Shown: one piece after another, positions 2,512 to 2,673 of the stretch
Numbering within the stretch: position 1 is the first letter of the stretch
Layout of the letters: the number at the start of each line of letters is the position of its first letter
DNA from: a virus
DNA length: 64,000 nucleotides
Reading direction: 5' to 3' (one strand)
Virus record (IMG/VR): IMGVR_UViG_3300045988_174813
Made by a program: the position numbers and the translations under genes
The notes under the pieces: model-generated
Seen by the model: the letters and a program-made list of their open reading frames with translations, nothing else
The model's database searches: none
What the model was told of the DNA's origin: nothing

Positions 2512-2549
2512 TGGTTCGGTAGTTTATCCTTCAAAAGCTACCTAGAATT

Positions 2550-2578
2550 TTGACTTTCTGGAAATTTTAGTGTATAAT
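2550..2578 (+). promoter_or_regulatory. sigmaA-type promoter TTGACT-17-TATAAT dedicated to the suppressor tRNA
   Basis: 47-bp perfect copy of the promoter at 644-690. The tRNA starts about 20 nt downstream of the -10. Confidence 0.8.
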
Positions 2579-2597
2579 AAATATAGAAAGTGGATGA

Positions 2598-2673
2598 AGG
2601 CCTGTGGTGTAACGGTAAGCATAGGAGGCTCTAACCCTCTTGATACTCGTTCGAGTCGAAGTCGGGCCTGCCA
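2598..2673 (+). tRNA. amber-suppressor tRNA (anticodon CTA, reads TAG), Gln-like identity features
   Basis: Acceptor AGGCCTG/CGGGCCT, AC arm GGAGG-CTCTAAC-CCTCT, T arm ACTCG-TTCGAGT-CGA(A)GT with one bulge, G73, CCA encoded. A1:U72 and G73 are shared with tRNA-Gln at 6404. Confidence 0.7.

Follow-up and report, generated by a model that had tools for sequence, protein, structure and literature searches.

The suppressor tRNA locus

The viral DNA analysed here (64,000 nucleotides (nt) of the IMG/VR record IMGVR_UViG_3300045988_174813, in the following termed the window) carries an array of transfer RNA (tRNA) genes, one of which encodes a tRNA with the anticodon CUA, i.e. a predicted suppressor of the amber codon TAG, and is preceded by a promoter-like sequence. 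The phage is a human-gut siphovirus with a genome of ~130 kb and SPbeta-like structural genes; the structural proteins, as judged from orthologues, match SPbeta Yon/Yom Pfam families. The nearest GenBank terminases were those of phages of Geobacillus (42% identity), Alicyclobacillus and Enterococcus (37%), with Phass-1 at 33%; no GenBank phage terminase exceeded 60% identity, and a megablast search of window positions 1-10000 against GenBank phages gave no match. The terminase relatives are all phages of Bacillota, which together with the SPbeta-type Pfam families, the promoter type and the GGAGG ribosome-binding sites downstream of the promoters makes a host of this phylum probable. Host labels of metagenome-assembled genomes that contain terminase relatives were contradictory (Bacteroidales, Methanobrevibacter, Bacillales, Faecalibacillus, Clostridium) and were left unused.

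The elements at the locus, together with the comparison tRNA of the original prediction, are as follows:

644-690, plus strand: promoter-leader cassette ahead of the tRNA-Leu(UAA) gene (697-781), an exact 47-bp repeat of the cassette at 2546-2592
2546-2592, plus strand: promoter-leader cassette ahead of the suppressor gene, with -35 hexamer TTGACT (2550-2555), 17-nt spacer and -10 hexamer TATAAT (2573-2578); identified by exact repetition, 11/12 consensus positions and conservation
2598-2673, plus strand: tRNA(CUA) amber suppressor gene, allele A; identified by ARAGORN, Rfam, compensatory changes and identity to tRNAs of crAss-like phages
2700-2760, plus strand: tRNA-like remnant between the suppressor gene and ORF68, with T-arm hairpin GTTGGTTCAAATCCAAC (2735-2751) followed by A8; conserved in relatives
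2804-3010, plus strand: ORF68, an open reading frame (ORF) call of 68 codons for a TAG-free small protein with a CxxC...CxxH pattern, probably co-transcribed with the suppressor
3000-3019, plus strand: predicted terminator-like hairpin where ORF68 ends, immediately ahead of the tRNA-Ile(UAU) gene
6404-6478, plus strand: tRNA-Gln(UUG) gene with A1:U72 and G73, called by ARAGORN

Structure of the suppressor tRNA

ARAGORN called 15 tRNAs in the window, all within positions 697-8730, and among them a single tRNA(CUA); it was placed at 2598-2673 with its first base 20 nt past the -10 box, in accordance with the original prediction of a tRNA with the loop CTCTAAC about 20 nt downstream of a promoter. 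The Rfam tRNA model (RF00005) matched the same segment with 33.8 bits compared with a gathering score of 29 (model positions 1-70; the match was also obtained on the whole window with default filters). The fold, which the original prediction had regarded as vulnerable because of a bulge in the T stem, was therefore retained by the covariance model as well as by ARAGORN: The T stem (ACTCG / CG-a-AGT) contains one bulged A in its 3' strand that is aligned by Rfam as an inserted A. The remaining features comprise the pairs A1:U72, G2:C71 and G3:C70, G10, G73, a 4-nt variable loop and an encoded CCA end; the 7-nt anticodon loop (C32-U33-C34-U35-A36-A37-C38) includes U33 and the anticodon CUA, the D arm reads GTGT-AACGGTAA-GCAT with GG in the D loop AACGGTAA, and the T loop is TTCGAGT. 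The element is probably a functional amber-suppressor tRNA gene within the tRNA array of a standard-code early region.

A group I intron (RF00028) was sought in the anticodon loop of the window suppressor and not found, and the exact suppressor tRNA segment gave no match in IMG/VR. An assignment as tRNA-Pyl was rejected: The ARAGORN label reflects the anticodon only ('Pyl' is printed for any CTA), and both loops speak against it, with GG in the D loop and TTCGAGT as T loop. Hallmarks of tRNA-Pyl are a small D loop without G18-G19, the absence of a T-Psi-C sequence and pyl genes nearby; no Pyl-related family was present among the scanned ORFs. A theta/HDV-like ribozyme 3' of the suppressor was likewise rejected, as a search with Rfam models, though not with the RNArobo descriptor of the theta-ribozyme study, revealed no HDV-like family in 2520-3030 even at E values up to 10 and the CCA end is encoded.

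Reading of TAG as glutamine

With TAG read as a sense codon, the longest stop-to-stop frame of the window is 2354 codons in length compared with 357 codons under genetic code 11. Counts of glutamine (Gln, Q) at TAG sites in near database homologues were discarded as circular, the respective proteins having already been translated with TAG as Q; they were replaced by a codon comparison at the DNA level with a 96%-identical relative (L004, 16 late genes) and by the comparison with a standard-code relative that contains no in-frame TAG (L017). Thirty-two TAG codons were conserved between the window and L004. At non-conserved sites, TAG of the window corresponded to CAA (6), CAG (3), GAA (1) and CCC (1) in L004, and TAG of L004 corresponded to CAA (7), CAG (4) and TGG (1) in the window; 20/23 exchanges were those with CAA or CAG. 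Terminase position 128, TAG in the window, is Q in 119/119 homologues and encoded by CAG in L017, and Q was also the commonest L017 residue at the TAG sites of the window (5/23; glutamate, E, 4/23). Alignment of TAG to a residue other than Gln had been named as a result that would overturn the original prediction; the dominance of Gln codons among the exchanges agrees with it instead, and the comparisons indicate that TAG is a sense codon meaning Gln in this phage.

The distribution of TAG among the genes is illustrated by the following features:

868-1503, plus strand: GIY-YIG homing endonuclease gene (PF01541, E = 5e-10) between both promoter copies, seven in-frame TAG
39627-40919, plus strand: gene that opens the late block, located downstream of the last sigma-A-type promoter (39532), six in-frame TAG
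42566-44362, plus strand: large terminase gene, used in the test of TAG as Gln, six in-frame TAG
47870-48919, plus strand: major capsid gene (YonB-like), zero TAG
53866-60924, plus strand: tape-measure gene (PF10145 on an orthologue), 65 in-frame TAG

In addition, the gene at 9705-11405 contains 11 and the portal gene four in-frame TAG codons. The plausible genes between 11.4 and 39.5 kb (~50 ORFs) are devoid of TAG, be it sense or stop codon, and the TAG-bearing ORFs of this region appear spurious or mis-started. The late block, in turn, comprises 117 TAG, 212 CAA and 63 CAG codons, i.e. TAG represents ~30% of the presumed Gln codons. The virion genes without TAG are those of the capsid, the scaffold-like protein (47303-47848) and the tube (52103-52906), whereas neighbouring low-copy virion genes contain many TAG codons; TAG seems to be avoided in the genes with the highest required output.

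The possibility that 39627-40919 encodes a late sigma factor gating TAG was dropped: The PHROG label 'sigma factor' was its sole support and was not confirmed, as sequence searches in Pfam, NCBIfam and PDB revealed nothing for the product and its AlphaFold model (pLDDT 62.7) had no Foldseek match with E < 0.001. The stretch upstream of this gene (39340-39530), which may have a role in regulation, as an origin or in packaging, contains CCCTTG four times, a run of nine G (G9) and, up to the promoter at 39532, six tandem copies of CCTAAAATTCCAAA.

The promoter-leader cassette and its family

A stretch of 47 bp is shared without a mismatch by 644-690 and 2546-2592, and the match extends past neither border; the perfect duplicate with TTGACT-17-TATAAT described in the original prediction is thus real. 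Three occurrences of the 29-bp promoter core at up to three mismatches compare with zero expected from shuffles, and the two 47-bp copies are the highest-scoring promoter-like sites in the first 12 kb (11/12 consensus match). However, the promoter is not dedicated to the suppressor, as had been claimed: Fourteen promoter-leader cassettes of the plus strand, the 47-mer among them, form a family that can be aligned over 67 columns, with TTGA and TATAAT as the invariant columns. The family shares the spacer and the leader ATATATAGAAAGTGAGG, which supplies the ribosome-binding site ahead of protein genes. Nor is the assignment of the promoter to the strongest class supported, as the window contains 23 promoters with at most one mismatch, seven of which match the consensus at 12/12 positions compared with 11/12 here. 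The assignment to the host sigma-A type, on the other hand, was supported in so far as the site is a near-consensus sigma-A/sigma-70 promoter in the TAG-free early part of the genome. The 23 sites (at most one mismatch from TTGACA-16..18-TATAAT; simulated sequences: mean 2.3, maximum 5) are all located between 648 and 39532, with zero in the late 24 kb (39.6-64 kb); a second set of ~20 consensus promoters serves the minus-strand genes at 28-39 kb. Two members of the family, at 329-385 and 21863-21919, have another downstream box in common (ATATATGTAAGGTTGAGRRAGARATAAT) and precede non-coding sequence; the product may be a small RNA encoded in two copies.

Transcription of the suppressor would be expected to start near 2585-2586. 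No terminator was predicted between the suppressor gene and ORF68, so the promoter probably drives the tRNA and ORF68 up to the hairpin at 3000-3019; the likely unit consists of promoter, tRNA(CUA), tRNA-like remnant and ORF68. The remnant spans D arm to T arm and lacks the acceptor stem, and its orthologues in two relatives (L029 and L032) were matched as partial tRNA (31.7 bits, model positions 10-63); a function of its hairpin as plus-strand terminator was ruled out by the terminator prediction. ORF68 has no Pfam family, and its homologues are confined to this phage group, in which their position is invariant.

The perfect identity of the two cassettes looks like the result of gene conversion between members of the promoter family. 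In the relatives described below, 37-45 of 47 positions match between the tRNA-Leu and suppressor promoters (the same count gave 46 for the identical pair of the window). Both window copies contain AAATATAG, whereas the tRNA-Leu copy of every relative contains AAATACAG (T versus C); the T shared by the window copies points to a conversion event within this genome.

Allele replacement and group I introns at the suppressor slot of sister phages

Sixteen further contigs (from human gut wherever the source was named) were found via the neighbouring methyltransferase-like gene and ORF68; counts of 17 contigs in the following refer to these relatives and the window. All 16 relatives have the order tRNA-Gly, promoter, tRNA(CUA), ORF68, tRNA-Ile with ~90-95% identical flanks, and a tRNA(CUA) is present in the slot of every one of them. 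The suppressor promoter has kept its position in 16/16 relatives, whichever tRNA allele is located downstream, and its hexamers are intact in all except L015 (-10 sequence TATACT); the tRNA-Leu promoter is also kept in the six relatives in which it was located.

The exchanged segment is the tRNA body, bordered precisely by the leader on one side and the conserved 3' flank TGCCA-TACTAAAGG on the other, and three alleles of it occur: allele A in the window, L010, L011 and L015 (identical in 4/4 contigs although the flanks differ), allele B in L001, L002 and L013, and allele C in L003 and four others. Allele A is 74% identical to C and 64% to B. All three have G73, CCA, G10 and a 4-nt variable loop in common, and the pair 1:72 is weak or mismatched in each (A-U, U.U and U.U in A, B and C, respectively). 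In the structural alignment of the alleles (made by hand, as MAFFT misplaced a gap), 60/63 stem cells are paired and 14/21 pairs have changed on both sides; this pairing together with the double-sided changes argues that A, B and C are all real tRNAs. The tRNA-Leu(UAA) body (697-781 and relatives) occurs in two very different alleles as well, starting with GGGGAATTGG or GGGCGTGTGG, behind the conserved promoter; cassette-like replacement is accordingly not limited to the suppressor.

In 10/17 contigs, the tRNA(CUA) gene is split in the anticodon loop: Five contigs with allele B contain a 273-nt insert and five with allele C a 196-nt insert, and the two inserts are homologous to each other although located in two different tRNA alleles. 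RF00028 matched with 53-58 bits (gathering score 50) in L003/L008, L014, L025, L029, L030 and L032. The predicted junctions lie after U33 in allele B and after U35 in allele C, and the inserts end in G. ARAGORN misses all intron-split suppressor genes. Examples in the slot that corresponds to 2598-2673 of the window are:

L003, 8778-9049: intron-split suppressor gene
L014, 810-1157: intron-split suppressor gene
L025, ~2100-2390: intron-split suppressor gene
L029, ~2010-2390: intron-split suppressor gene

In L003, in-frame stop codons also occur in the homologue of gene 9705-11405. The papers that were located and read contain no description of introns in phage suppressor tRNAs or of rapid allele replacement at a suppressor slot.

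Based on the at least three tRNA(CUA) alleles swapped among otherwise 85-95% identical phages, the slot may tentatively be regarded as an exchangeable cassette in which self-splicing of the group I intron provides a second, RNA-level gate on the code change, the window allele having escaped or resisting the intron; at present, we would sooner doubt than adopt this interpretation. If it were correct, the gate would depend on guanosine and on folding of the intron, and standard tRNA finders would miss suppressors because of the introns, a possible explanation for part of the 'missing' suppressors of recoded phages.

Related suppressors and tRNA identity

The suppressor of the window belongs to a wider family. 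Allele A is 83.6% identical over nt 4-70 to the tRNA-Gln(CTA) of the crAss-like phage cr53_1 (NC_055889, 6664-6738), and the anticodon arm AGGAGG-CTCTAAC-CCTCTT is common to allele A, cr53_1 and cr60_1 (NC_055891); the same arm occurs on 96 IMG/VR contigs, mostly of ~100 kb. The two crAss-like suppressors also resemble allele A in the type of D arm, the T loop TTCGAGT, the weak pair 1:72 and the encoded CCA. They differ in having U1.U72, A73 and a regular 5-bp T stem in contrast to A1:U72, G73 and the bulged A of the window allele, and they belong to phages of another host phylum (Bacteroidota) with unrelated surrounding genes. A close relative of allele A with the same bulged T arm was detected on the minus strand of an unrelated low-GC contig (L112, IMGVR_UViG_3300032038_000517, offset ~7462), where a strong intrinsic terminator follows the suppressor. 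The acceptor stem of this relative is fully different (U1:A72, G2:C71, G3:C70, G73); the recurrence of the bulged T arm with a different acceptor stem indicates that the bulge is a conserved feature and not damage.

The correspondence of A1:U72 and G73 to the tRNA-Gln(UUG) of the window, which the original prediction had regarded as consistent with charging by GlnRS, was found at 6404-6478. The resemblance of the D arm to that of the tRNA-Pro gene (GTGT-AATGGTA-GCAT), by contrast, which had left the identity unsettled in the original prediction, is real but has no bearing on it, because the whole tRNA is ~62% identical to tRNA-Pro compared with 84% to the tRNA-Gln suppressors of the crAss-like phages. 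The determinants of Escherichia coli glutaminyl-tRNA synthetase (GlnRS) are U1:A72, G2:C71, G3:C70, G10 and G73, and the amidotransferase GatCAB reads U1:A72; the weak first pair and G73 of the suppressor alleles fit this known Gln identity. Judged from sequence, the Gln identity of the suppressor is well supported. With regard to the charging enzyme, no phage synthetase was seen in the window (about half of the genome), and charging by the host is assumed for this reason.

Proposed mechanism and alternative explanations

Upon entry of the DNA, host RNA polymerase with the primary sigma factor would start at ~2585, alongside other early units, and would produce a transcript consisting of a ~12-nt leader, the tRNA with its encoded CCA, the tRNA-like remnant and ORF68, from which the tRNA would be released by RNase P and 3' nucleases. 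The host would load it with Gln, either directly by GlnRS or by a non-discriminating glutamyl-tRNA synthetase (GluRS) followed by GatCAB. The accumulating tRNA would then outcompete release factor 1 (RF1), which would permit the translation of genes with in-frame TAG, among them the homing endonuclease gene, the gene at 9705-11405 and, in the late block, the genes of terminase, portal and tape measure. The code change would thereby be a dose-dependent consequence of always-on early transcription with no separate trigger. Taken as a whole, this explanation (a suppressor under an early promoter, TAG as Gln and a dose-dependent code change) is the best available and, in our estimate, highly probable. 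The claim of the original prediction that early transcription by host polymerase sets the code switch is a plausible inference and is already the published model (Borges et al.).

Several points nevertheless weigh against this explanation. Promoter activity and its timing, RNA processing, the route of charging and the competition with RF1 have been deduced and not observed. The Rfam score of allele A is the third lowest among the tRNAs of the array. The sequence of allele A, folded alone, adopts a non-cloverleaf structure with an energy close to that of shuffled sequences (z = +0.33); single-sequence folding was set aside as uninformative for the support of the tRNA. A minimum-energy structure other than the cloverleaf is common for unmodified tRNA sequences, and a cloverleaf minimum is not a defining criterion of RF00005. 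As no terminator lies upstream of 2546, the tRNA may also be supplied by transcripts that begin at the promoter at 648 and read through. With about half of the genome covered by the window, the remainder could encode a second suppressor, a release factor or a synthetase. Finally, the 65 TAG codons of the tape-measure gene need a suppression of ~99% per codon (0.95^65 is ~4%, 0.99^65 ~52%), which a single tRNA gene may not reach unless RF1 is also countered; they would call for a high tRNA dosage and perhaps an anti-RF1 function.

Among the alternatives, the one that survives best assumes that the suppressor is always on and that TAG is not a timer: Late timing would be achieved by transcription, and TAG would have drifted from CAG/CAA wherever low efficiency is tolerated. 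The late block without sigma-A promoters is compatible with this possibility, as are the suppressor promoter, which is of the type of the earliest genes, the absence of TAG from capsid, scaffold-like and tube genes compared with its presence in genes of low-copy proteins, and the free interchange of TAG and CAA/CAG between 96%-identical genomes. However, ~50 early genes are free of TAG, yet the endonuclease and gene 9705-11405 carry it in early units, a pattern that resembles the selection for late translation suggested for recoded phages; drift without a timing role appears unlikely, though it deserves serious consideration.

The 47-bp repeat could alternatively be mainly a target of recombination or of the homing endonuclease, or a mobile mini-element, with the tRNA being produced by upstream read-through. 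The exact exchange of tRNA-Leu and suppressor bodies between cassette and conserved 3' flank, the GIY-YIG endonuclease gene between the copies and the missing terminator between the units would be in line with such a role. In contrast, the columns without variation in the family alignment coincide exactly with the -35 and -10 hexamers, separated by 17 nt, and all copies are found on the coding strand at a distance of 20-45 nt from the start codon or tRNA that follows; the family also exceeds chance expectation about tenfold and is restricted to the early region. A repeat that is not mainly a promoter is improbable.

It is still harder to sustain that allele A is a decaying or inefficient tRNA, as its irregular T stem, the low score of 33.8 bits and the non-cloverleaf single-sequence fold might suggest, and that TAG is decoded by a suppressor outside of the window; Phass-1 does possess three suppressors, and about half of the genome lies beyond the window. 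Allele A is, however, identical in four contigs, the bulged T arm has been kept with compensatory acceptor changes in L112, and the gene is the sole tRNA(CUA) among 15 array tRNAs, with every relative keeping one in the slot. The insertion of a residue other than Gln (Glu after charging by GluRS without amidation, Pro or pyrrolysine) can practically be dismissed: The 'Pyl' label of ARAGORN, the proline-like D arm and the nearly equal numbers of E and Q (4/23 versus 5/23) at TAG sites in the distant standard-code relative are outweighed by the 20/23 exchanges with CAA/CAG compared with one with GAA, the invariant terminase Q128 that is TAG here, the D loop GG and T loop TTCGA that are unlike tRNA-Pyl, and the closest annotated relatives, which are tRNA-Gln.

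Further elements of the tRNA array

A conserved non-coding stretch of ~830 nt (1611-2436) between the tRNA-Met and tRNA-Gly genes consists of invariant blocks and variable hairpins; across seven relatives, RNAalifold predicted 174 pairs, nine with double-sided change, and the stretch may be a large structured RNA. A doubtful ARAGORN call of a transfer-messenger RNA (tmRNA) in the corresponding part of the L003 array was discarded, as neither the Rfam tmRNA nor any other family matched. The tRNA at 5603-5679 (anticodon CAA for the Leu codon UUG) comprises 77 nt and lacks the long variable arm that is normally present in bacterial tRNA-Leu; the orthologue in L002 measures 85 nt. Two sub-threshold matches to YrlA (Y RNA-like; 39.7 and 33.2 bits, gathering score 69) are located at 4779-4914 and 4979-5087 and are overlapped by a tRNA-like element, also found in relatives, whose anticodon loop ('tata') has 8 nt. 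At 8649-8730, a tRNA-like gene was matched by Rfam tRNA with 44.5 bits, to which ARAGORN assigned an abnormal two-base anticodon ('cc').

Significance and comparison with known recoding systems

While the recoding of stop codons by gut phages is an established phenomenon, it is not known how the change of code is initiated. Since the suppressor shares its promoter type with ~40 early transcription units, the start of the change would not require any factor of the phage, and the dosage of the tRNA would determine when it occurs. The rapid allele replacement and the frequent group I introns at the slot in sister phages offer a simple reason why suppressors are undetected in many recoded phages, and a suppressor family common to phages of Bacillota and Bacteroidota may interest genetic-code engineers.

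SegB is a free-standing GIY-YIG endonuclease in the tRNA cluster of T4. The tRNA clusters of T4-like and T5-like phages (see PMC13096335) are similar to the array described here in their location in the early region, transcription by host polymerase, a GIY-YIG gene among the tRNAs and a mosaic content, but the standard code applies in these phages, whose tRNAs serve to supplement codon usage. The inserts of the relatives correspond to the group I introns of bacterial tRNAs (Williams 2020, bioRxiv 10.1101/2020.01.27.920355) in their location in the anticodon loop, the U at position -1 and the terminal G; that survey of bacterial genomes described introns in tRNA-Leu(UAA), tRNA-fMet, tRNA-Ile and others and does not mention suppressors or phages, whereas the host gene in the relatives is a phage suppressor tRNA.

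Phass-1 (Babkin et al. 2023, PMC10607447) is similar in origin and size (human gut, ~130-136 kb), its large tRNA set, TAG as Gln in terminase and virion genes, the lack of a dedicated synthetase and a predicted host (Clostridia). It differs in its terminase (33% identity) and in carrying three suppressor genes, which had no similarity to alleles A, B or C in a blastn search. The suppressors linked to theta ribozymes (Kienbeck et al. 2024, PMC10879173) are likewise phage tRNA(CUA) genes inside a tRNA-rich region, and 3'-end formation has been proposed as a part of the code switch in that study; in contrast to the ribozyme-linked tRNAs, only 4.5% of which have an encoded CCA, the window suppressor encodes CCA and has no HDV-like Rfam match adjacent to it.

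The closest parallel is provided by the gut phages with 'code 15', for which a suppressor produced early, from DNA in the standard code, and recoded late genes have been proposed (Borges et al. 2021/2022, bioRxiv 10.1101/2021.08.26.457843), and for which the reading of TAG as Gln was validated by proteomics (Peters et al. 2022, PMC9523058). As in these phages, the tRNA(CUA) gene of the window is located in standard-code DNA, the early genes are free of TAG, and in-frame TAG codons are concentrated in structural and late genes and in the homing endonuclease; the lineage is a different one, i.e. an SPbeta-like siphovirus with a probable Bacillota host. Promoters of suppressor genes are not mentioned by Borges et al., and the sole promoter mentioned by Kienbeck et al. 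is the T7 promoter used for cloning, whereas the promoter at the present locus can be read directly and reveals a suppressor wired into the general early promoter family. The always-on early transcription proposed here corresponds to the variant that Kienbeck et al. discuss as 'always on, concentration-based'. The locus is a new example of an already known recoding strategy, and the interpretation given in the original prediction is supported in part.

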